A stretch of DNA of 64,000 nt, taken from an uncultured Erysipelotrichaceae bacterium. GTDB lineage: Bacteria; Bacillota_I; Bacilli_A; Erysipelotrichales; Erysipelotrichaceae. Both the position numbers and the translations under genes were made by a program. The notes under the pieces were generated by a model. That model saw only the letters and a program-made list of their open reading frames with translations, did not search any database and was not told the origin of the DNA. The DNA is taken from the NCBI GenBank assembly GCA_964370645.1, contig CAYJJS010000004.1, forward strand, positions 6,613 through 70,612, written 5' to 3'. This document shows, piece after piece, positions 499 through 51,297 of this stretch. Position 1 is the first letter of the stretch. Each line of letters starts with the position of its first letter.

Positions 499-1916
499 AT
501 GTTCTCCTCTATTTCAATTGCATTGATTAAATACCCTTCAAAGGAATAATGACTCGCTTTGGTATGTATCTTTGTGCAAGTATCATAAATTCTTGTACTC
601 ATTGTTTTCACTCCATCATTAATAAATATTTCTAAAGAAGAAATATCCGAATAGATTTCAATACAATGAACACAATCCACTTCATAATGTGCAACATCTC
701 TTCCAAAGCCATGTACATCCATGTGTAGGCTTAATACACCTTCATTATACACTAACTTTGTATTTGTACGTAATGTAATTTCAAAGTCTTGACACATTTC
801 AAACATCCACTTTGCACGATATGCATTATGCTTTAGGTTCGTTCCTTCATGAAACGCTTCACCATATAAATCTTGCATTTCTACAATGGCTCTTTGACAC
901 AGCATTCCCTCTTTCACATACAACTCTCTTGGTATAGTAAGTGTATGCTGCCATCCATCTAGTGTTGTTGGATTTGTATAATCCACATCTGGTAATCCCA
1001 TCCATCCAATTAAAATTTGTCTACCGTTTGCATCTTTAAAAGATTGCGGAGCATAGAAATCAAACCCCAAATCCATCTCTTCAAAAACACCTACCATTGA
1101 ATGATTTAAAAAATCAGTAGGAATATGAAAGTATCCATTTTGATATATTCGTTCATATTTATACCCCTGTGTAGTTACCCCTTGTGGACAAGTAATCAAA
1201 AATAGTTGATTATCTATTTCTATTAAATCTGGACATTCCCACATATAACCAAATTTCTCTTCACTTCTCAATGTTGTAACATACTCAAATGTATCTAAAT
1301 CCGTAGATGCATAAAGTAACACACAACCAATATCCATTTTATCTCGAGCACCCAGCACCATGTAGTATGTATCTTTTATCTTCGTTACTTTTGGATCACG
1401 CACATGGCATGTCATATCCTTTGGATAATCTTCATTTTTAAACAAGCAAACTTTATTGCTCATTTGCTTACCATCTTTACTTGTGAACACAATAGTATTG
1501 TGTTCTCTTCCTTCATGGATATAATCGTAATCCCCTACTTTTTTCACATTTCCTGTGTAGAAATAGTAAATGGTATCATCCTTTACAATCGCACTACCTG
1601 AATAAGCCCCACCTTGATCTTCTTGTACATCAGGGTATACTACCATTCCATTACTCTTATAATGTATAAAGTCATTAGTTTGAAAGTGCCCCCACCCTTT
1701 CAAACCATTGTGTACATCATTGGGAGCATATTGATAATAAATATGGTATGTCCCTTTATATTGTACCAATCCATTTGGATCATTCAACCAACCAACTGGT
1801 GGCATTAAATGATACATTTGCTTATATATCCCCTTGTCATGATCTTTTAGCGCCTTTTTCGTATTTTCTTTATATTCATTCAAATTAATCCAATTTGCAA
1901 ACTTCACTTCCTTCAT
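495..1916 (-). CDS. scrB: Sucrose-6-phosphate hydrolase (GH32)
   Basis: GH32 motifs WLNDPNG, RDP and ECP are present. Follows the sucrose PTS gene. The track ORF opens on GTG at 1928; the ATG at 1916, preceded by AAAGGTGGA, is preferred. Confidence 0.9.
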   Translation of the reverse strand: MKEVKFANWINLNEYKENTKKALKDHDKGIYKQMYHLMPPVGWLNDPNGLVQYKGTYHIYYQYAPNDVHNGLKGWGHFQTNDFIHYKSNGMVVYPDVQEDQGGAYSGSAIVKDDTIYYFYTGNVKKVGDYDYIHEGREHNTIVFTSKDGKQMSNKVCLFKNEDYPKDMTCHVRDPKVTKIKDTYYMVLGARDKMDIGCVLLYASTDLDTFEYVTTLRSEEKFGYMWECPDLIEIDNQLFLITCPQGVTTQGYKYERIYQNGYFHIPTDFLNHSMVGVFEEMDLGFDFYAPQSFKDANGRQILIGWMGLPDVDYTNPTTLDGWQHTLTIPRELYVKEGMLCQRAIVEMQDLYGEAFHEGTNLKHNAYRAKWMFEMCQDFEITLRTNTKLVYNEGVLSLHMDVHGFGRDVAHYEVDCVHCIEIYSDISSLEIFINDGVKTMSTRIYDTCTKIHTKASHYSFEGYLINAIEIEENI

Positions 1917-3744
1917 CGATGCTTCCACCTTTCACTTCCTCAATTGTATGTTTTGAAGTGAATACAGTCATTGTCTCTGTACTATATCCTGCTTCTTTAA
2001 TCTTCTCTAAATCCATTTGGATCAATCGTGTTCCTTTCGTAACTTGTTGTCCTTCTTCTACATATAATTGAAATGCTTCTCCATTCATATTCACTGTATC
2101 AATCCCACAATGAATTAACACTTCTACACCATCACCACGTTGTAAACCAATCGCATGTTTGGTTGGGAAAATCATCTTTACGCATGCATCAAATGGTGCT
2201 ACTACATTTCCATTAGTTGGTGTTATGACAAACCCATCACCCATTGTTAATGAAGCAAACATCTCATCACTACATGTACTTAGCGGTGCAATTTTCCCAC
2301 TCATAGGTGCATAGACAGTGCTATTTGATGTAGTTTGTTCGCTTGTCATAGTCAATTGCTTTGCTGCATCACGCTTAAATAAAATGATTGTTACTGCAAT
2401 TGTTGTAATCATAGTTAAAACTAATCCAATTGCAAAGTTTACATAGTTAGATGGAGCAATCGATAAGAAACCAGGAATTCCAGCTGCTCCTAATGCTGTC
2501 GCTTTTACATTTGTGATCGCCAAGTATGCACTCCCAACTCCTGAACCTATCATCGCTGCAACAAACGGGAATTTTAACTTTAAGTTCACACCAAACATTG
2601 CTGGCTCTGTAATTCCTAATAAAGCACTAATCCCACTAGCTGAACATAAACTTTTAATTTTTGAATCTTTACTTAAAAACAATATCGCAAGTACTGCAGA
2701 ACCCTGTGCTACATTTGACATTGACGCCGTTGTAAAGATGAATGTTTCACCAACCGAAGCCAATAAAGTAGTCTCTACAGCACTAAATGAATGATGTAAA
2801 CCAGTAATTACTATTGGTGCATAGAAGAATCCAAAAATTGCAGCACCTACAAATCCTAATGAATCATATAACCATGTAATTCCATCAGCCATTAACCAAC
2901 CAGCTTCACGTAATATTGGACCTACAAAAATAAAAGTAATAAATGCAGTAATTAAAATAGATAATAATGGTGTAGTTAAATTATCTAACCATGTTGGTGT
3001 AATTTTACGTAAGTTTATTTCTAATTTCGCCAAGATCCAAGACACAGCCAATACTGGCAATACCGTTCCTTGGTAACCAACCGTTTCAATCGTTAATCCT
3101 AAGATATTCCAAGACGGTATCTCCGTTGCGTTTGCATAAGAATATGCATTCATTAAATCAGGATGTACCATAATCATCCCTAACGCAGCTCCAAGATAAG
3201 GATTCCCACCAAACTTCTTCGTTGCACTAAATCCTAATAATACAGGTAAAAATACAAATGGTGCATTCGCAAATAAGTTGATTGCACTCGCTAAATCTTT
3301 AAACTGTGGATATACTTCAATAATACTTTTGCTTTCATGAATTAAACCAGCTGCAGTCAAGATGTTGTTCAATCCCATCAACAACCCTCCAGCAACAATT
3401 GCTGGTATAATTGGAACAAATATATCCGATAAAATTTTAACTCCTCTTTGTAACCAATTTCCTTCTTCTTTTTGTACTTCTTCACTTACTTCTTCGTGAC
3501 CAAGTTGTTTTTTAACTTCACTACAAACTAAATTCACTGTTCCAGAACCAAATATAATTTGGTATTGACCTTTTGCAGCAAATGTTCCCTTCACCTTGTC
3601 TACACTTTGTAATTTACTCTCTTGCACCAATGATGCATCTTTTAAACGCAAACGAAGTCTTGTTGCACAATGCATAACTTCTTGAATATTGTCTTTTCCT
3701 CCAACAAATTGTATCACTTCTTTTGCTATTTTTCCATAACTCAT
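1885..3744 (-). CDS. scrA: PTS sucrose-type transporter, fused EIIB-EIIC-EIIA
   Basis: N-terminal EIIB Cys motif (MHCATRLRL), multi-TM EIIC core, and a C-terminal EIIA-Glc-type domain (HCGIDTV). Operon context with GH32 and a LacI regulator. Confidence 0.88.
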   Translation of the reverse strand: MSYGKIAKEVIQFVGGKDNIQEVMHCATRLRLRLKDASLVQESKLQSVDKVKGTFAAKGQYQIIFGSGTVNLVCSEVKKQLGHEEVSEEVQKEEGNWLQRGVKILSDIFVPIIPAIVAGGLLMGLNNILTAAGLIHESKSIIEVYPQFKDLASAINLFANAPFVFLPVLLGFSATKKFGGNPYLGAALGMIMVHPDLMNAYSYANATEIPSWNILGLTIETVGYQGTVLPVLAVSWILAKLEINLRKITPTWLDNLTTPLLSILITAFITFIFVGPILREAGWLMADGITWLYDSLGFVGAAIFGFFYAPIVITGLHHSFSAVETTLLASVGETFIFTTASMSNVAQGSAVLAILFLSKDSKIKSLCSASGISALLGITEPAMFGVNLKLKFPFVAAMIGSGVGSAYLAITNVKATALGAAGIPGFLSIAPSNYVNFAIGLVLTMITTIAVTIILFKRDAAKQLTMTSEQTTSNSTVYAPMSGKIAPLSTCSDEMFASLTMGDGFVITPTNGNVVAPFDACVKMIFPTKHAIGLQRGDGVEVLIHCGIDTVNMNGEAFQLYVEEGQQVTKGTRLIQMDLEKIKEAGYSTETMTVFTSKHTIEEVKGGSIDEGSEVCKLD

Positions 3745-14671: not shown

Positions 14672-15949
14672 TTATTCACTTTCTTTTTTATCTACTAAAA
14701 TTAAGTTTAATACAATACCAACAATCGCCGATAATGCTGTTCCAGATAATACTGCACTTCCACCTAATGGGAAAATTGCTCCACCTAGTCCAACCACTAA
14801 CATTGCTGATGCGATAATTAAGTTACGTTGTTTTGAGAAATCCACATTGTTGTCAATTAAAATACGTAACCCATTACTTGCAATTACTCCATATAATAAG
14901 ATTCCCATACCACCTAGTACTGGTGTAGGAATTGAAGCAACAACAACCGATACATATTCTAAACAAGATAATAAAATGGCAAGAATTGCTGCTCCACAAG
15001 TTACATAAACAGATCCAATACGAGTCATACCAATAACTCCTGTGTTTTCACCATATGTTGTATTTGCAGGTCCACCTAAGAATCCAGATACCGCAGTAGC
15101 AACACCATCACCAATCAAAGTTTTATCTAATCCAGGGTCTTTTAAGAAGTTTTTTCCACAAATTTTACCTAGTACTGTATGATCTCCTATATGTTCAGAA
15201 ATCGTTACTAACGCTACTGGTAAAATAGCCCAAGTTTCTGGTCCAAAGTAAAATTCATATTGTCTAAATCCTTCTACATGAAATGGGAACGCAAATTCTG
15301 GAATAGCAAATAATTCTGCCCCCGCTAATCCACTTAAATCTACAATACCTAATGCAAGCGATAATACATACCCAACTACAATAGCAACTAAGAAAGGAAT
15401 GATTTTGAAAAACCCTTTTGCATATACTGATACAATTGCCGCTGTTAAGAACGTTACAATTGCTACTGCAATGTTTTCAATACTTCCACCTTCAATAAAT
15501 CCAGCATTTGCAACTGCAGAGCCTGCTAAACCAAGCCCAATTACGGCAATCATAGGCCCAATAACAATTGGTGGTAAGATACGATCAATCCAACTTTTTC
15601 CAACTAATTTAATCACAATGGCAACAATCACATACACAAAACCAATTAATATAAGTCCTGTTTGTGCAGCAGATATATCTCCACCCATTGCTTCTACCGC
15701 CAAGATAACGGCTGTAATATACGCAAACGATGAACCTAAATAAACAGGCACCTTCCCTTTCGTACAAAACGTGTAAATAAGCGTTCCAACTCCTGATGCA
15801 AATAGTGCAACCGATACTGGATAACCAGTTAAGATAGGTACTAGAATCGTTGCTCCAAACATTGCAAATACATGTTGAAAGCTTAAGAATACTAATAATC
15901 TATTACTTGGTTTCTCATTTACATCAATCAATAATGTTTTTTCTTTCAT
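14672..15949 (-). CDS. pyrP: Uracil/xanthine permease (NCS2 family)
   Basis: 425 aa, 12-14 TM segments, with NCS2 signature regions (FQHVFAMFGATILVP, GENTGVIGMT). Confidence 0.8.
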   Translation of the reverse strand: MKEKTLLIDVNEKPSNRLLVFLSFQHVFAMFGATILVPILTGYPVSVALFASGVGTLIYTFCTKGKVPVYLGSSFAYITAVILAVEAMGGDISAAQTGLILIGFVYVIVAIVIKLVGKSWIDRILPPIVIGPMIAVIGLGLAGSAVANAGFIEGGSIENIAVAIVTFLTAAIVSVYAKGFFKIIPFLVAIVVGYVLSLALGIVDLSGLAGAELFAIPEFAFPFHVEGFRQYEFYFGPETWAILPVALVTISEHIGDHTVLGKICGKNFLKDPGLDKTLIGDGVATAVSGFLGGPANTTYGENTGVIGMTRIGSVYVTCGAAILAILLSCLEYVSVVVASIPTPVLGGMGILLYGVIASNGLRILIDNNVDFSKQRNLIIASAMLVVGLGGAIFPLGGSAVLSGTALSAIVGIVLNLILVDKKESE

Positions 15950-43641: not shown

Positions 43642-44844
43642 ATGCAATATCGAGAATTAGTAAATGGGGCAAAACCAGTATCTGCATTAGGATATGGTTG
43701 CATGCGTTTCCCAAACAAAGGTGGATTCATTGATGAAATAGAGAGTGAACGCCAAATTTTAGAAGCCATAAAACAAGGAGTGAATTATTTTGATACTGCT
43801 TATTTTTATCATAGTGGTAAAAGTGAAACATTGCTTGGTAATCTATTTCAAAAACACAATTTAAGAAAAAAAGTATTTATTGCAGATAAACTTCCCTATC
43901 TATTAGTAAAACAAAACAAAGACATATACAATATTTTTCAAACGCAATTGAAGCGACTACAAACGGATTATATCGATTATTACTTAATGCATATGCTTGA
44001 CAGTTTACAAACATGGCAACAATTAAAATCACTTGGTATCCTAACATTCATTGAAGAACAGAAGCGACTTGGAAGTATTCACCACATAGGTTTCTCTTTT
44101 CATGGTAGACAGGAGGAGTTTATGAAAATCCTAGCAGATTACGATTGGGATTTTTGTCAAATTCAGTTCAACTATTTGGATGAAAATTATCAAGCTGGCT
44201 TGGCTGGTTTACAAGCAGCCTACGACAAAGGAGTTGGCGTTGTGATTATGGAGCCATTGAGAGGTGGTGCTTTGGCCAATAACATACCTGATAAAATCCA
44301 AACACTATTCCAACAATATCCAAACACGTACTCCCCAGCACAATGGGCATTGCGCTGGATTTTCAATCATAAAGAAGTGAGTGTTGTCCTTAGTGGGATG
44401 AATGCCACACAGCAAATTGAAGAAAACATTCATGTAGCATCTACTACACAAATCAATAGTATGAGTGATGAACAACTTCATTTAATTCATAGAGCGAAAG
44501 AAATTTTTCACGAATTGATGAAAGTACCTTGTACAGGATGCAATTATTGTATGCCCTGCCCTTTTGGTGTTGACATTCCAGGAAACTTTAGCGAATACAA
44601 TAACTCTTACTTTTTTAAATCTAGAATGGCAAAAACACATTATATGTCCAAACTAGTAAAAAAAGATGACTTATCTGGTGCAAATTTATGTGTAAACTGC
44701 AAAAAATGTGTAAAACATTGTCCACAAAACATTGATATCCCACAACAATTAAAACAAGTGCACAAACATTTAAGCAACCCAATCATTGTCTTTTTCTTAA
44801 AAATCGTAATGCGATTTGTTGGACCAAAAAAGCAGAAGTCTTAG
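43642..44844 (+). CDS. Aldo/keto reductase with a C-terminal 4Fe-4S ferredoxin-type domain
   Basis: AKR core (GYGCMRF, DTAYFYH, DYYLMH) plus the cysteine clusters CTGCNYCMPCP and CVNCKKCVKHCP. Confidence 0.85.
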   Translation: MQYRELVNGAKPVSALGYGCMRFPNKGGFIDEIESERQILEAIKQGVNYFDTAYFYHSGKSETLLGNLFQKHNLRKKVFIADKLPYLLVKQNKDIYNIFQTQLKRLQTDYIDYYLMHMLDSLQTWQQLKSLGILTFIEEQKRLGSIHHIGFSFHGRQEEFMKILADYDWDFCQIQFNYLDENYQAGLAGLQAAYDKGVGVVIMEPLRGGALANNIPDKIQTLFQQYPNTYSPAQWALRWIFNHKEVSVVLSGMNATQQIEENIHVASTTQINSMSDEQLHLIHRAKEIFHELMKVPCTGCNYCMPCPFGVDIPGNFSEYNNSYFFKSRMAKTHYMSKLVKKDDLSGANLCVNCKKCVKHCPQNIDIPQQLKQVHKHLSNPIIVFFLKIVMRFVGPKKQKS

Positions 44845-44873
44845 TTACTTCTGCTTTTTTCTTCGTATATATA
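44827..44873. repeat. Direct repeat copy A (47 bp) containing a 13-7-13 palindrome/terminator
   Basis: AAAAAGCAGAAGTCTTAGTTACTTCTGCTTTTTTCTTCGTATATATA. Identical to 47822..47868 except for 1 nt in the hairpin loop. Confidence 0.9.
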
Positions 44874-44880
44874 TTTACGC

Positions 44881-47322
44881 TTACAAATATTCTCCAATTA
44901 CACTATTTCTATTTTGCGAAATTTCATAAGGTGTACCTACTGCAATAATGTTTCCACCTTTATCTCCACCATATGGACCCAACTCAATAATATAATCACT
45001 CTTAGCTAATACATCCAAATTGTGCTCAATCACAAACACTGAGTTATTTTTGTCGACTAACTTTTTTAGTAGTAGCAATAGCTTTTCCACATCCGCAGGG
45101 TGAAGTCCACTAGTTGGCTCATCTAACAAATATAAGGTATTTCCAGCTTTTCCTCTTGCCAATTGTTTTGATAATTTCAACCGTTGGCACTCCCCACCTG
45201 AAAGAGTTGTAGTGGATTGTCCAAGCTTAAGATAAGCAAGTCCAACTTCATCAATGACACAAAGTTTTTTATAAATATCCTCATTTTCTTTAAAAAAATT
45301 CAAATTTTCTTGTACCGTCATATTCAAGATATCAGAAATATTTTTATCTTTATATGTAATCGCCAATACCTTCTTTTTAAACCTATGACCTTTACAAACC
45401 GGACATGTCACTTCGATATCCTCTAAAAATTGCATATCCAATGCGATTACACCCAGACCCTCACATTTTTCACAGCGTCCTCCTTTCACATTAAAGGAGA
45501 AATCAGAAGGTTTGAGTTTACTCTTTTTCGCTTCTTTCTGTGTAGAAAACAACTCTCTTATTAGCATATAAACCTCGCTATAGGTTGCAACATTACTTCT
45601 GCTTTGTCTTCCGATTGGACTTTGATCGATTCGAATCATTTCAAAAATGTGTTGTAACCCGTTGATTTGCGATACATTCCTTCTTTGCTCAATGACATCA
45701 AAAACTAGACTACTTTTCCCACTCCCCGAAACACCAGCAAAAGCAACGAAGTGGTTGAGTGGTATATTTACTGAAACATTATTAAGATTATGTGCTGTGG
45801 CATTCTTTACCTCAATAAACTTTTGAGCATTTATTTTTTCATTGTTTGGACTCACTTTTTCTCTTTGCAAATATTTTGCAGTGATTGAGGCTTTACTTTG
45901 AATCACCTCTGATAGTAAACCACTTGCTACTATTTCTCCACCTAAACTACCTGCACCAACACCAAAATCGATGATATGATCACAGGCTTTGACAAAATCC
46001 ATATCATGTTCAATTACGATTACTGTATTTTTAAGATCGCGTAATTTTTTTATTGCCTCTAACAGTTGTAACGTATCCCTTGCATGTAATCCAGTGGTTG
46101 GCTCATCTAAAATATACACTACTCCACTAAGTCCACTTTCTAAGATATTTACAAGGCGAATCCTTTGATTTTCTCCCCCTGAAAGAGTACTTATAGATCG
46201 ATCGATTGAAAGATATTCTAACCCAATCCTTATCATTCCATTGACACGTTTCAGGATGTCGCCAATAACAACTGTAGCAATATCTTTTGCTGATGGACCC
46301 ATGCTATTTTTTGTATTTTCTAAAAAAATAAATAGTGAAGACATTGTATAAGTACTAACTTCACTAATTGTTTTTCCATTCAACTTCGCACTTCTTCCAT
46401 CACTTCCTAACCTTGTTCCCTCACATGTTTGACAAGGTGTACTTACAATAGCCTTTGCAATCACAGGGTTCGCAACTTTTTTTGTAGCCGATTCGACCAC
46501 TTTTTTATTCACAAATGTTCGTAATCCTTCAACATATCCATCCATTACTCTCTTTGGTTTTTTTATATTTGGAAATCGCTTTTTAAAAGCTGCGCTATCA
46601 ACACCATCCAAAAGTACTAGCATTTCAAGTTCATTATAATCTTTAATCGGTTTTGACACATCAAAAGTAAACCCATAATGTTTTCCACAGTTAGCAAAAA
46701 CATTTGCATAATGTTCATCAAAAGTTTTATTACCCCAAATTTTAATAGCACCTTCTCTTATCGTTAGGTTTTCATCTATTAATTTCGAGAAATCAATGTC
46801 CTTCACAACACCAATTCCATTGCACTTTGGACAAGCTCCCTCTACTTTATTGAATGAAAAACTTGCCATCGTTAAATGCGAAATTTTACTTTTACAATGT
46901 GGACAAGATGTATGCGAATAATCTTCTTCCTCCTCAAATGTTGGTGGTATCTCTAATTTACAATTCGGACATATTCTTGTGGCAAGTTTCGCATACAGGA
47001 TACGAAGATACGTTAGTATTTCTGTATATGTTCCTACCGTTGAACGAGGATTTTTCGAAAGTACTCTTTGCCCAATAGAAATAGAGGGAGAAAGACCAAC
47101 AATACTATCTACATGTGGTTTATTTAAACCATCACTCACCATGCCCATAGATTCTAAATATTGCCTTTGACATTCTTTTTGTAAGATATCCATAGCTAGA
47201 CTGCTTTTCCCACTCCCTGATAAACCCGTTAAAGCAACCAGTTTATACTTAGGTATTTGTACTGTAATATTTCTAAGATTATTTTCTTTTGCTCCAGTAA
47301 TTTTTATAAATTCATTTCTCAT
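44881..47322 (-). CDS. UvrA paralogue (short, class II-like excinuclease ATPase)
   Basis: 813 aa with two ABC ATPase modules with interspersed Zn-finger Cys pairs, as in UvrA. It is about 130 aa shorter than canonical UvrA, consistent with loss of the UvrB-binding region. Confidence 0.8.
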   Translation of the reverse strand: MRNEFIKITGAKENNLRNITVQIPKYKLVALTGLSGSGKSSLAMDILQKECQRQYLESMGMVSDGLNKPHVDSIVGLSPSISIGQRVLSKNPRSTVGTYTEILTYLRILYAKLATRICPNCKLEIPPTFEEEEDYSHTSCPHCKSKISHLTMASFSFNKVEGACPKCNGIGVVKDIDFSKLIDENLTIREGAIKIWGNKTFDEHYANVFANCGKHYGFTFDVSKPIKDYNELEMLVLLDGVDSAAFKKRFPNIKKPKRVMDGYVEGLRTFVNKKVVESATKKVANPVIAKAIVSTPCQTCEGTRLGSDGRSAKLNGKTISEVSTYTMSSLFIFLENTKNSMGPSAKDIATVVIGDILKRVNGMIRIGLEYLSIDRSISTLSGGENQRIRLVNILESGLSGVVYILDEPTTGLHARDTLQLLEAIKKLRDLKNTVIVIEHDMDFVKACDHIIDFGVGAGSLGGEIVASGLLSEVIQSKASITAKYLQREKVSPNNEKINAQKFIEVKNATAHNLNNVSVNIPLNHFVAFAGVSGSGKSSLVFDVIEQRRNVSQINGLQHIFEMIRIDQSPIGRQSRSNVATYSEVYMLIRELFSTQKEAKKSKLKPSDFSFNVKGGRCEKCEGLGVIALDMQFLEDIEVTCPVCKGHRFKKKVLAITYKDKNISDILNMTVQENLNFFKENEDIYKKLCVIDEVGLAYLKLGQSTTTLSGGECQRLKLSKQLARGKAGNTLYLLDEPTSGLHPADVEKLLLLLKKLVDKNNSVFVIEHNLDVLAKSDYIIELGPYGGDKGGNIIAVGTPYEISQNRNSVIGEYL

Positions 47323-47735
47323 TTTTCCTCCGACAAATAGTCTGCCATGAAATTCAGTATTTCCATGAACACTATTTTTTTATCCATTGAAAATTGCTCA
47401 TCTACCGCATCCATTAATGAAGCAGCTTTTGCATCCTGACTATTCTCAATTAAATTCTTTGCTAAAGATAAATATGTCACCCTTTTATCTTTTTTTGACT
47501 GTGTTTTTATAATTAGCCCCTTACTTTCAAGTTCATTTACTTTTTGGGTAGTTGCAGGCCTAGATAGATTTAGACGTTGTGCTAATTCACTCACTGTCAT
47601 ATTTTGTTTGTGGTTAATGATAAACAATTGTAAAACATCTGAATAAGACAAACCACTCCCAATTTCACTATCACGAATATTCTTATAACAATCCATATCC
47701 ATCGCACTCATAAATCTAAAATATGCATCTCTCAT
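47319..47735 (-). CDS. MarR-family regulator co-transcribed with the UvrA paralogue
   Basis: 138 aa winged HTH (VSELAQRLNLSRPATTQKVNELESKGLI, DKR wing). 4-nt overlap with the downstream gene. Confidence 0.8.
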   Translation of the reverse strand: MRDAYFRFMSAMDMDCYKNIRDSEIGSGLSYSDVLQLFIINHKQNMTVSELAQRLNLSRPATTQKVNELESKGLIIKTQSKKDKRVTYLSLAKNLIENSQDAKAASLMDAVDEQFSMDKKIVFMEILNFMADYLSEEK

Positions 47736-47748
47736 ACATTACCTCGCC

Positions 47749-47773
47749 ATATAGTTTCAATATTGAAATTATA
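47749..47773. promoter_or_regulatory. Operator-like 25-bp repeat 1, containing the perfect palindrome TTTCAATATTGAAA
   Basis: Read directly from the sequence. Lies 14 nt upstream of the marR ATG. Confidence 0.65.
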
Positions 47774-47795
47774 TCACACACTCAAAAATTCTGCA

Positions 47796-47820
47796 ATATA
47801 GTTTCGATATTGAAATCATA
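47796..47820. promoter_or_regulatory. Operator-like 25-bp repeat 2 (TTTCGATATTGAAA)
   Basis: Differs from repeat 1 at 2 of 25 positions. Centres are 47 bp apart. Confidence 0.6.
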
Positions 47821-47821
47821 T

Positions 47822-47868
47822 AAAAAGCAGAAGTCTTAATTACTTCTGCTTTTTTCTTCGTATATATA
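47822..47868. repeat. Direct repeat copy B (47 bp), bidirectional terminator overlapping the 3' end of the membrane protein gene
   Basis: AAAAAGCAGAAGTCTTAATTACTTCTGCTTTTTTCTTCGTATATATA. Confidence 0.9.
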
Positions 47869-48550
47869 ATTGTTCAATCCAACCTTTTTTATATTTCAAA
47901 GAAATATATCCAATACTTGCTACTACAAATGCACCTAGCGAGTCTACGATTAGATCTGACATTGTGTCACTTAGTGCTGCTCTTCCTACAAATGGAGTTC
48001 CATCCTCTAATCCAAACTTTTGCATATTCAATCCCCACAATCCATCAAACACATATTCATAGACCTCCCAAAATACACCCAGTGTAATTGCGAAGCAAAA
48101 TGCAAATAATGCAACAAATAATGGGCTTAGTTGTATCGAAATCTTTTCAGATTTATTAAATAATGTAATTACGCTAAATCCCATTGCTCCAAGCATTCCT
48201 CCACTAAATGTATGTAAGAAAGCATCCCAATATTTAAAATTATAATAATAACTACGCACTTCCCCTAAGAAAATTGCGCCAAATAAAAATAAGGCATATA
48301 AGATTAACATCCTTGAAGGAATACGAATAGACCAACTTTTTTCTAACCATCCGGGTAGCATCATGGCAAACACTCCCAAAATGCATTGTGCAATCATTAG
48401 CGTATAATGACTTTTAGTTGGTTGATTATTCGTTGCATCCACTACACTTTCTGGTGCGCGTATTACAAGTATGATTAATACCACAAGTGATATGAGTAAA
48501 GTTAAAAACACGCTTAAGGATACTATCTTTTGAACATTAAATTGTTTCAT
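47840..48550 (-). CDS. Hypothetical integral membrane protein (about 6 TM segments)
   Basis: 236-aa hydrophobic ORF. No family confidently recognised. Confidence 0.5.
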   Translation of the reverse strand: MKQFNVQKIVSLSVFLTLLISLVVLIILVIRAPESVVDATNNQPTKSHYTLMIAQCILGVFAMMLPGWLEKSWSIRIPSRMLILYALFLFGAIFLGEVRSYYYNFKYWDAFLHTFSGGMLGAMGFSVITLFNKSEKISIQLSPLFVALFAFCFAITLGVFWEVYEYVFDGLWGLNMQKFGLEDGTPFVGRAALSDTMSDLIVDSLGAFVVASIGYISLKYKKGWIEQLYIRRKKQK

Positions 48551-48636
48551 CTATATTACCTCCATTTAATCTTAATTAAATTATACCAATTTTTTCATAA
48601 AAAATGTATAATATTCTTGTTGTTAGAGGAGATAAT

Positions 48637-49749
48637 ATGAAAAAAAGAACTTACAAAACATCTAATGAAGAAGTATCTTTATTAGGATTTGGTTGTATGC
48701 GTTTTCCTATGAATGAAGATGGTACAATCAATAAAAAAGAAACATTTAAAATGATGGATTATGCATATGAGCAAGGTGTGAACTACTACGATACAGCATA
48801 TCCATACATTAATGGAACGAGCGAAATTATCGTAGGAGAATGGTTAAGTAGCAAAGAACGTAGTTCTTTATATTTAGCGACAAAATCTCCAGTATGGGAT
48901 TTGCATAGTATGGAAGATTTTTATGCGAAACTGAATGAACAATTAAGTAAACTACAAACAGAATATATTGATTATTATTTGCTACATGCGCTAGACAAAT
49001 CTAAATGGGATCAAATTAATGCATTTGATTTAATTGCCCACTTAGATGAAGTAAAAGCATCTGGAAAGGTGAAAAAAATTGGATTTAGTTTCCATGATGA
49101 ATATCCAATGTTTGAAGAAATCTTGAACAGCTACGATTGGGATTTTTGTCAGATTCAATACAATTATATGGACGTAGACTACCAAGCAGGTAAAAAAGGG
49201 TATGAATTAGCAAAGTCTAAAGGAATCCCTGTCATCATTATGGAACCAATCAAAGGTGGACAACTTGCAAATGTACCTCAAGAAATTAAAACATTATTCA
49301 ATGAGGTTGCTCCACAAAAGAGTGACGCCTCTATGGCAATGCGCTTTGTGGGTAGTCATGAACATGTATTAACAGTATTGTCTGGAATGAGCACACTTGA
49401 GCAAGTAAAAGACAATGTGAATACATTTCAAGACTTTGTACCATTTAGTGAAGAAGAATATACTGTCATTGAAAAAGCTCGTAAAATATTTTTAGAAAGA
49501 GTGCAAGTGCTATGTACACAATGTGGATATTGCATGCCCTGTCCTTTTGGTGTAAATATCCCTAGAAACTTCACGATTTTAAATAACTCACACATCTATG
49601 ATAACTTCGCAGGTGGTAAATCAAGATATTGTGACTTAAAGGAAGCCGCAGCACATACTTGTGTAGGTTGTCGTGTTTGTGTTGATAAATGTCCACAACA
49701 CATTGATATTCCTGAGAAATTATTACAAGTGAAAGAAGAATTGCAATAA
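48637..49749 (+). CDS. Aldo/keto reductase with a C-terminal 4Fe-4S domain (paralogue of 43642..44844)
   Basis: Same motif set (GFGCMRF, DTAYPY, DYYLLH, CTQCGYCMPCP, CVGCRVCVDKCP). The start is set to the ATG at 48637, which follows AGAGGAGA. Confidence 0.85.
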   Translation: MKKRTYKTSNEEVSLLGFGCMRFPMNEDGTINKKETFKMMDYAYEQGVNYYDTAYPYINGTSEIIVGEWLSSKERSSLYLATKSPVWDLHSMEDFYAKLNEQLSKLQTEYIDYYLLHALDKSKWDQINAFDLIAHLDEVKASGKVKKIGFSFHDEYPMFEEILNSYDWDFCQIQYNYMDVDYQAGKKGYELAKSKGIPVIIMEPIKGGQLANVPQEIKTLFNEVAPQKSDASMAMRFVGSHEHVLTVLSGMSTLEQVKDNVNTFQDFVPFSEEEYTVIEKARKIFLERVQVLCTQCGYCMPCPFGVNIPRNFTILNNSHIYDNFAGGKSRYCDLKEAAAHTCVGCRVCVDKCPQHIDIPEKLLQVKEELQ

Positions 49750-50772: not shown

Positions 50773-51297
50773 TTATACAGTTTCTAAACAACCGTATCCT
50801 CCATCTTCTCTTTTATATACAACGGCAATTTCATTTGTCTCGTCATCGGTATATATAAAGAATGAGTGATTCAACATTTCCATTCTCATAATTGCTTCAT
50901 CAATATCCATCGTTTCCGGAGAAATAGATTTTGTACGTACAACATCTTGTGTATCTTCTTCTTCGTATTCTTCGTGCATGAATATTTCAGCCAATCCTTC
51001 TTTTCCTTTTTTCGATAATCTTGTTTTTTGTCTACGAATTTGATCTTCTAATTTATCAATAACCAAATCAATTGCTGCATATAAGTCATCATGTGTAACC
51101 TCAGCTCTTAATACAACCATTTTCGTTGGTATAGTAACTTCTATCTTTTGCCCTAATCGATATACTCTAACGACTACATTTGCTATCGCATCTTCATCAA
51201 TAATGAAGTATTTCTCTAAAATTGATAATTTATTCTCCACCTTTTCTTGAATAGCGGGTGTTACGCTTATATTCTTTCCATAAATTTGTACTTTCAT
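50773..51297 (-). CDS. hpf: Ribosome hibernation promoting factor, long form
   Basis: 174 aa. S30AE N-terminal domain (MKVQIYGKNISVT) plus the C-terminal dimerisation domain of long HPFs. Confidence 0.9.
   Translation of the reverse strand: MKVQIYGKNISVTPAIQEKVENKLSILEKYFIIDEDAIANVVVRVYRLGQKIEVTIPTKMVVLRAEVTHDDLYAAIDLVIDKLEDQIRRQKTRLSKKGKEGLAEIFMHEEYEEEDTQDVVRTKSISPETMDIDEAIMRMEMLNHSFFIYTDDETNEIAVVYKREDGGYGCLETV

Follow-up and report, generated by a model that had tools for sequence, protein, structure and literature searches.

A MarR-regulated UvrA paralogue between duplicated terminators in an Erysipelotrichaceae genome: a probable insertion with long target duplication

Phage morons, a concept due to Juhala and Hendrix, are independent promoter-gene-terminator units inserted between genes. 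In Streptococcus thermophilus, the cis-mobilizable elements (CIMEs) and the elements ICESt1 and ICESt3 have their att sites at the 3' end of fda, and a cognate tyrosine integrase is found in related elements. The insertions with long target duplication (ILTDs) form another such class, the earlier work on which is reportedly that of Nobusato, Uchiyama, Ohashi and Kobayashi in 2000 (Gene 259:99). They are defined as inserts of less than 20 kb, devoid of mobility genes, that come with a target duplication of more than 30 bp, and the described cases include one from Haemophilus influenzae, where 46-bp repeats, unique in the genome, share 15 and 2 bp with the 3' ends of genes, and one from Thermus with a 47-bp repeat; the paper gives no mechanism, and its text makes no mention of terminators (Furuta, Abe & Kobayashi 2010, NAR 38:2428, PMC2853133). 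Here we describe a module made of a marR-type repressor gene and a uvrA paralogue, which lies between two 47-nt direct repeats in the genome of an uncultured Erysipelotrichaceae bacterium (assembly GCA_964370645.1). The DNA analysed, referred to here as the window, is a stretch of 64,000 nt from contig CAYJJS010000004.1, which is contig C4 of a draft genome of 1.78 Mb in 63 contigs (97.7%-complete; contigs are denoted C1, C2 and so on). This module probably entered a bidirectional terminator common to two convergent genes, one encoding an aldo/keto reductase (AKR1) and the other a membrane protein of the DUF2238 type, and duplicated 47 bp of it in the manner of an ILTD.

The two copies of the repeat share the sequence AAAAAGCAGAAGTCTTA(G/A)TTACTTCTGCTTTTTTCTTCGTATATATA, and 46 of their 47 positions are identical. 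Each of them can be split into a left arm, AAAAAGCAGAAGT, a loop, CTTA(G/A)TT, and a right arm, ACTTCTGCTTTTT, which together make a 13-7-13 hairpin, followed by a right flank of 14 nt, TCTTCGTATATATA. The sole mismatch between the copies (44844/47839) falls inside the 7-nt loop, and a weaker identity runs on for three bases past the repeat (48/50 across 44827-44876 versus 47822-47871). A first-pass annotation, made from the letters of the sequence, had reported 47-bp direct repeats with a single spacer mismatch at these positions, and the alignment of both copies confirms it. The same annotation had raised the possibility that this would be a generic terminator sequence shared across the genome, which is not seen: the 33-nt palindrome, searched with up to three mismatches, has two matches in the window against 0.00 expected (100 shuffles), and these are the only two in the whole genome. 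A 25-nt core of the repeat has zero matches in the GTDB species genomes or the JGI metagenome contigs.

Each copy folds into a hairpin of 13-14 bp on either strand, with energies of -15 to -19 kcal/mol and z scores of -4.4 to -5.7 (-18 and -19 kcal/mol, z -4.4 and -4.8, for copy 1; -14.9 and -18.1 kcal/mol for copy 2). Since the hairpin of each copy lies between an A-tract and a T-tract, as read directly in copy 1, each of them can be read as a bidirectional intrinsic terminator, and copy 2 is the only site picked up in the region by a terminator consensus scan (minus strand, 13 pairs). Copy 1 is predicted to act as the terminator of AKR1 on the plus strand and of the uvrA paralogue on the minus strand, while the predicted role of copy 2 is to terminate the membrane gene and to insulate the marR promoter.

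The repeat also contains the ends of the two resident genes. AKR1 ends in ..GPKKQKS, its five last codons and stop falling within copy 1 (left arm and loop), and the membrane protein ends in ..EQLYIRRKKQK, whose last codons run in copy 2 from the right flank through the right arm into the loop. In all copies the plus strand encodes KKQKS and a stop and the minus strand encodes YIRRKKQK and a stop, the genuine gene ends being located in copy 1 and copy 2, respectively; these gene ends had been claimed in the first-pass annotation and hold on direct reading of the sequence and of its open reading frames (ORFs). As the arms of the hairpin are complementary, one and the same stretch of 13 nt is read by the two convergent genes, each on its own strand, which gives both proteins the ending KKQK. 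Comparison with homologues places both tails within their family patterns: the tails of AKR homologues read ..MRFMGG-RKKREEA or ..RFIGP-RREK, the basic tail following ..MRF(V/M)G(G/P), and those of DUF2238 homologues read ..GWIEQFYIKFKK (in a homologue of 69% identity) or ..LTLRKKK.., in alignment with the tail of the window protein. Since the YIRR tail is conserved in DUF2238 homologues, the 14 nt of the right flank would be genuine membrane-gene codons, copied from the end of the DUF2238 gene. The 14 nt of copy 1, beside the uvrA paralogue, appear as a non-coding relic of the C-terminal codons of the membrane gene, and the repeat was presumably attached to that gene when the duplication happened. 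Homologues of both flanking families are already basic-tailed, a property that may explain why an overlap with a common terminator is tolerated. As for the family assignment itself, a precomputed annotation gives PF09997 (DUF2238) for the window protein and all its homologues, and a local-Pfam hmmscan gave no such match even at E = 0.1.

Between the copies there are 2,948 bp of unique DNA (44874-47821), in which marR and the uvrA paralogue are the only ORFs with family matches (Table 1). No recombinase, integrase or transposase is found among the ORFs or the Pfam matches of this segment, as the first-pass annotation had noted for integrases and transposases. The module is compact: the stop of marR overlaps the start of the uvrA paralogue by 4 nt, the stop of the latter is 7 nt away from copy 1, and the outer operator abuts copy 2 with zero bases in between. 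The control region upstream of marR includes two operator-like palindromes of 26 nt each (47749-47774 and 47796-47821), spaced 47 nt apart, a ribosome-binding site (RBS), GAGG (47742-47745), and a predicted promoter, read by eye, with a weak -35 element, TTGCAG (47791-47796), and an extended -10 element, TGATATAAT (47768-47776). This promoter is not listed by the consensus scan because its -35 element matches only three of six positions.

Table 1. Features of the region in window coordinates, with three further repeat-bracketed inserts of the same genome in contig coordinates
Feature	Position	Strand	Description
AKR1, Fe-S aldo/keto reductase, 400 aa	43642-44844	+	ORF; Pfam Aldo_ket_red + 4Fe-4S
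Direct repeat, copy 1	44827-44873		47 nt: hairpin 44827-44859 + 14 nt 44860-44873
UvrA paralogue (class II), 813 aa	44881-47322	-	Pfam: two ABC ATPase modules + UvrA DNA-binding domain
MarR-family repressor, 138 aa	47319-47735	-	ORF; Pfam MarR E = 1e-14
Control region	47736-47821	-	Two operator-like palindromes, predicted promoter, RBS
Direct repeat, copy 2	47822-47868		47 nt: hairpin 47822-47854 + genuine last codons of the membrane gene
DUF2238-type membrane protein, 236 aa	47840-48550	-	ORF; PF09997 in precomputed annotation
AKR2, second AKR	48604-49749	+	42% identical to AKR1
Bracketed insert on C19	C19:1316-1362 / 2636-2682		Repeats of 47 nt, identical; last 11 nt of tRNA-Ala(TGC) + terminator; insert: 334-aa ORF, no Pfam match
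Bracketed insert on C34	C34:15112-15198 / 15731-15815		Repeats of 87 nt, 94%; last 14 codons of eno + terminator; insert: 88-aa membrane ORF
Bracketed insert on C2	C2:1369-1403 / 1883-1917		Repeats of 35 nt, mismatches only in loop; terminator between convergent genes; insert: 79-aa minus-strand ORF + upstream region

Copies of the module elsewhere show where it begins and ends. Around 30 homologues of the UvrA paralogue, at 70-79% identity, are present in metagenome-assembled genomes (MAGs) at NCBI, and seven of the related loci (L074-L076 and L109-L112) were compared with the window. All seven lie in different gene contexts. In five of them the overlap between marR and the start of the uvrA paralogue is exactly that of the window, and there is no adjacent marR in L074 and L112. 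In L075 and L076, the two checked for control elements, the operator pair and its 47-nt spacing are conserved, as is the position of the promoter, and the marR products are 78-80% identical to that of the window. Nucleotide similarity to these two loci sets in at the outer operator and breaks off no more than about 10 nt from the stop of the uvrA paralogue; outside of these edges, the related loci are unlike the window and unlike one another. The edges obtained by comparison are therefore the same as the edges of the unique DNA between the repeats. Flanking direct repeats of at least 16 nt are absent at all seven related loci, as is any such palindrome, and the same script recovers the 47-mer of the window at E = 4e-20, which indicates that the repeats belong to this landing event and not to the module. 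Against plasmids, a blastn search with the module gave only distant uvrA similarity.

The phylogeny of the module is also discordant with that of housekeeping genes. When glycyl-tRNA synthetase (GlyRS) is taken as reference, the two genomes of the same genus are 89% (G001) and 88% (G002) identical to the window genome; the first one has a UvrA paralogue of only 55% identity without an adjacent marR, and the second one has the canonical UvrA only. Other family members, with a GlyRS identity of 64-79%, vary in the identity of their UvrA paralogue, and the genome of L074, where the GlyRS identity is 67%, has one of 79%, with no marR next to it. Overall, MAGs with a GlyRS identity of just 67% carry counterparts of the uvrA paralogue at 77-79% identity and of marR at 78-80%. 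This discordance indicates that the module was acquired horizontally, the donor being compositionally similar, as would fit the lack of a G+C signal at the insert.

The module edges, the DUF2238 relic and the discordant phylogeny give indirect support to the ancestral arrangement proposed in the first-pass annotation, namely a convergent gene pair with one terminator into which the module was later inserted, and we infer that the module, and not the flank, is the newcomer. According to the mechanism that we propose, a self-regulated module consisting of operators, promoter, marR and class-II uvrA paralogue would arrive horizontally and land in the bidirectional terminator common to the convergent AKR1 and DUF2238 genes. 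Upon landing, 47 bp of the target would be duplicated, made up of the hairpin (33 nt) and of 14 nt from the 3' end of the DUF2238 gene, with the outcome that AKR1, the incoming operon and the DUF2238 gene would each keep or gain a terminator and both flanking ORFs would keep their C-termini. The ends may have been joined through the filling-in of a widely staggered break, through template switching during replication at the hairpin, or through one homologous and one illegitimate joint in combination. The repeats should now permit the precise loss of the module, either RecA-dependent or mediated by slippage, or its amplification.

Several observations weigh against this insertion into a shared terminator. 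The G+C profile does not mark the insert. No empty site, in which AKR1 and the DUF2238 gene would be separated by a single repeat, is found among 60 related genomes, two of them of the same genus, a result explained by the lack of a close relative in any of the collections searched: exact-protein look-ups of both flanking proteins returned no records, and their closest homologues in a search of 5.8 billion proteins are only 69% (DUF2238) and 61% (AKR1) identical. The adjacency of AKR1 and DUF2238 is itself absent in the relatives examined, all six DUF2238-homologue loci being without an adjacent AKR; the two same-genus genomes have neither of the flanking genes, and the synteny with them stops at hpf, right of the region. 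As there is no empty site, parsimony is what supports the polarity, with the module as the insert. Nor is the left arm of the hairpin assignable to AKR1 with certainty, because the A-tract by itself encodes lysines. In addition, ILTD is the name of a category and not of a chemistry.

In the surroundings of the region, leftwards from position 50773 of the window, all genes from that for an EamA protein onwards, among them both AKRs, the DUF2238 protein and a thiamine energy-coupling factor (ECF) operon, have no counterpart in the corresponding contigs of the two same-genus genomes (G001:C7 and G002:C33). A sleC-like gene is split in the window, and its two halves are adjacent in G002.

Among the alternatives to a single insertion, a local or two-step rearrangement that never involved an AKR1-terminator-DUF2238 target site is unlikely. 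It could have followed several routes: the copying of a 47-nt patch of the DUF2238 terminator behind the uvrA paralogue, which would have replaced the AKR1 tail; a tandem duplication plus recombination; or a homology-facilitated illegitimate recombination anchored on the DUF2238 side. Only the right part of the repeat is confidently assigned to a flank, the AKR1 tail could be a by-product of the A-tract, and the entire region left of hpf is non-syntenic and patchy, all of which would suit such a history; tandem duplication plus recombination has moreover been proposed as an alternative for ILTDs (PMC3457768). However, a rearrangement requires more steps, the GP-KKQKS tail of AKR1 agrees with the family pattern G-x-(K/R)n, the edges of the module coincide exactly with those of the repeat, and no partial second copy of flank or module is present. 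A history written by the assembler rather than by the cell is very improbable. It would imply that a chromosome with a single repeat and a separate circle of 2,995 bp, or a second strain, were threaded through the repeat, and it draws on the draft state of the assembly, with its 63 contigs, and on the 29 nt of exact identity beside the mismatch, which a low-k graph could cross. Yet the many exact 55-nt overlaps found beside 100-N gaps in this assembly fit a scaffolding with k = 55, which exceeds the 47 nt of the repeat, so that single k-mers span it and a graph artefact is unlikely; only one copy of the module is present in the assembly, it is hard to envisage a 3-kb circle that lacks a replication gene, and both junction types must still exist in some molecule. 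It is even harder to sustain that the two copies are a generic repeated terminator, members of a small dispersed repeat family or the remains of an ancient local duplication. Stems of the type AAAAAGCAG..CTGCTTTTT are frequent in terminators of low-G+C Firmicutes, and another terminator of this genome, at C2:1369-1403, has a similar stem; nevertheless, the presence of exactly two genomic copies and of zero in public collections effectively refutes this explanation, the identity of 46/47 runs 14 nt past the hairpin into coding sequence, and the AKR paralogues at the flanks are just 42% identical, so that the AKR duplication is old and separate from the repeat.

The first-pass annotation had favoured a different origin, comparing the repeats with attL and attR and the 13-7-13 palindrome with the core site of a tyrosine recombinase, in which case an integrase-less, CIME-like module would have been moved in trans or would have lost its integrase. 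A direct repeat that overlaps and restores a gene 3' end is indeed typical of such elements, the palindrome-with-spacer geometry of the repeat would suit a core site, and an analogous case in the genome duplicates the 3' end of tRNA-Ala and its terminator, a classical integrase target. We regard this origin as decidedly improbable, however, because the genome, 97.7%-complete as it is, encodes only two proteins with a PF00589 match, which score best as XerC and XerD. The xerC-like gene adjoins trmFO, and the xerD-like gene is about 80 nt from a dif-like site, ACTTCGCATAATATATATTATGTAATTT (C13:29627-29654), that matches the dif of B. subtilis at 23 of 28 positions, whereas the best ungapped match of the repeat to that dif is just 14-16/28, mostly in the AT-rich centre. 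Besides not being dif-like, the palindrome reads as a terminator on both strands with its A-tract and T-tract, the 47-mer is found nowhere else in the genome or the collections, the other module loci (7/7) have no flanking repeat, three analogous inserts of the genome carry unrelated sequences, and the insert holds no decayed recombinase or other junk. The attL/attR reading of the first-pass annotation is thus not borne out.

Other mobility systems were tried and rejected as well. A Xer/dif-dependent module, of the type of the integrative mobile elements exploiting Xer (IMEX) or of pdif modules, does not agree with a repeat that is not dif-like. A DNA transposon or insertion sequence is contradicted by the lack of a transposase ORF and of an inverted repeat pairing the ends of the insert, and by a duplication of 47 bp instead of the usual 2-14 bp; in this respect, the first-pass annotation was right to see 47 bp as exceeding a typical transposon target duplication. 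An integron cassette is discarded since the scores of the two tyrosine recombinases as XerC/XerD far exceed those as integron integrase, and since the module has its own promoter and two genes and ends in an identical 47-mer rather than in distinct attC sites. The retro-copying of a transcript 3' end, considered because the repeat ends at a U-tract, is rejected as well: there are zero matches to the reverse transcriptase family (PF00078) in the genome, and a repeat at eno, described below, overshoots its U-tract by 12 nt. A serine recombinase is encoded 6-10 kb away from the module, in a sporulation-type element; serine recombinases are not known to leave long direct repeats.

The landing site of the module is not the only bracketed terminator of this genome. 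Scanning the genome for short, local direct repeats and discounting those due to scaffolding overlaps, to tandem domains or to tRNA arrays leaves three further inserts, whose repeats measure 35, 47 and 87 nt (Table 1). The presumed scaffolding overlaps are exact 55-nt repeats found 155 nt apart around runs of 100 N (C8:31012-31281, and others on C1, C3, C9, C10 and further contigs) and are unlikely to be biological repeats. The four repeats, including that of the window, have no common sequence, and all of them contain an intrinsic terminator. In three of the four inserts, one boundary of the repeat is at or near the outer end of an A or U tract. The insert on C2 is a miniature of the marR-uvrA case, given its convergent genes and its loop-only mismatches, and that on C19 has the classical tRNA-end target in a genome without an integrase. 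For the inserts at eno and tRNA-Ala, empty sites were not found in the congeners, whose gene order at these loci differs; downstream of eno, the gene order differs in both same-genus genomes, so that none is demonstrable there. Selection alone could explain the pattern, if insertions are tolerated where every transcription unit keeps a terminator. That the terminator hairpins are mechanistic hot spots for recombinase-free gene gain, and not merely tolerated sites, is a proposal that we consider doubtful, although boundaries near the end of the A or U tract would fit the stalling or nicking of a fork at the hairpin, followed by template switching or by the fill-in of a wide stagger.

With regard to what the module does, the UvrA paralogue is clearly different from the canonical UvrA of the genome, encoded on a separate contig (C11). 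The NCBIfam UvrA models cover residues 1-126 and 135-813 of the paralogue and skip about 120 profile positions, which we take to be the UvrB-binding domain; the protein would hence be a class-II UvrA, apparently lacking the UvrB-binding insert. It is colinear over residues 4-813 with PDB 7sh1 (812 aa), deposited as 'Excinuclease ABC subunit UvrA' and presumably Ecm16, and it also matches PDB 2vf7, deposited as excinuclease ABC subunit A, which we assume to be UvrA2 from D. radiodurans. Ecm16 and DrrC are class-II UvrA paralogues that give self-resistance to echinomycin and daunorubicin, respectively. In four of the seven related loci (L075, L109, L110 and L112), the neighbours are ada, ogt, alkA-like (HhH-GPD), alkD-like (DNA_alkylation) or DUF1848 genes, a setting suggestive of a function in responding to DNA damage of the alkylating or bulky type. 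A marR is present in three of these four loci, the exception being that of L112. The alkA-ada-ogt cluster of the window genome itself (C2:30128-32206) is without a module. With a MarR repressor in the module and genes for alkylation repair recurring next to it, the module would most likely serve, judged from gene content, to tolerate or repair in an inducible manner DNA damage of the bulky, alkylating or intercalating type, or to act in the same way against DNA-binding toxins. A UvrA paralogue also adjoins an AKR gene, or lies no more than about 1.5 kb away from one, in four genomes (window 43642-47322, L074:8001-11893, L072 and L073); the AKR subfamilies differ, which may reflect a coincidence or a loose functional link such as the reduction of quinone-type genotoxins.

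If the insertion took place as proposed, a regulated operon for DNA-damage or drug tolerance would be moving between gut Firmicutes without a recombinase of its own, and its landing would have left three transcription units with their terminators and two proteins with their tails. The concept of ILTD, described mainly for restriction-modification systems, would then extend to a resistance-type module and to the Erysipelotrichaceae. Together with the three sibling inserts, the locus points to terminators as the preferred, or the only tolerated, landing sites. This idea bears on the mechanism of ILTD, unexplained since 2000, and terminator hot spots, if real, would supply the missing mechanism. 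For the population, the 47-bp repeats predict precise loss or amplification of the module, which matters for the stability of the trait.

Compared with known systems, the UvrA paralogue resembles Ecm16, UvrA2 and DrrC in its size class (about 810-840 aa), its two ABC modules, its UvrA DNA-binding domain and the absence of a UvrB-binding domain. It differs from them in that it is found outside any antibiotic biosynthetic cluster and is paired with a MarR repressor, and in that its relatives adjoin genes of the ada, ogt, alkA and alkD types. As a unit, the module resembles the morons in being a self-contained transcription unit placed between two resident genes that are left undisturbed. However, it resides in a bacterial chromosome and, even though it has its own promoter and operators, it brings no terminator of its own and gained one by duplicating that of the host. 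The IMEX and pdif modules are likewise recombinase-less and bracketed by short palindromic sites of the arm-spacer-arm type, and XerC and XerD are the sole tyrosine recombinases here, but the arms of the window repeat are of 13 nt, with a 7-nt spacer and A/T tracts, instead of the 11-6-11 of dif, and the site is not at the chromosomal dif. With CIMEs, ICESt1 and ICESt3 the locus shares an integrase-less segment between direct repeats that include a gene 3' end; in contrast to them, the window genome is without such an integrase, and no related element in the collections scanned carries the 47-mer.

The locus is best placed among the ILTDs, of which it is a probable further example, with a cargo other than restriction-modification and with a terminator as target. 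It shares with them a short insert without integrase or transposase, here of 2,948 bp with only marR and the uvrA paralogue, and a unique direct repeat of more than 30 bp over the 3' ends of the neighbours, here of 47 nt, 46/47 identical, with two genomic copies and not dispersed. The published cases are defined by a genome with the empty site, whereas the window locus is matched on its structure. The published cargo is a restriction-modification system and that of the window is a MarR-regulated UvrA paralogue, and the target of the window insertion is a complete bidirectional terminator hairpin common to two convergent ORFs.

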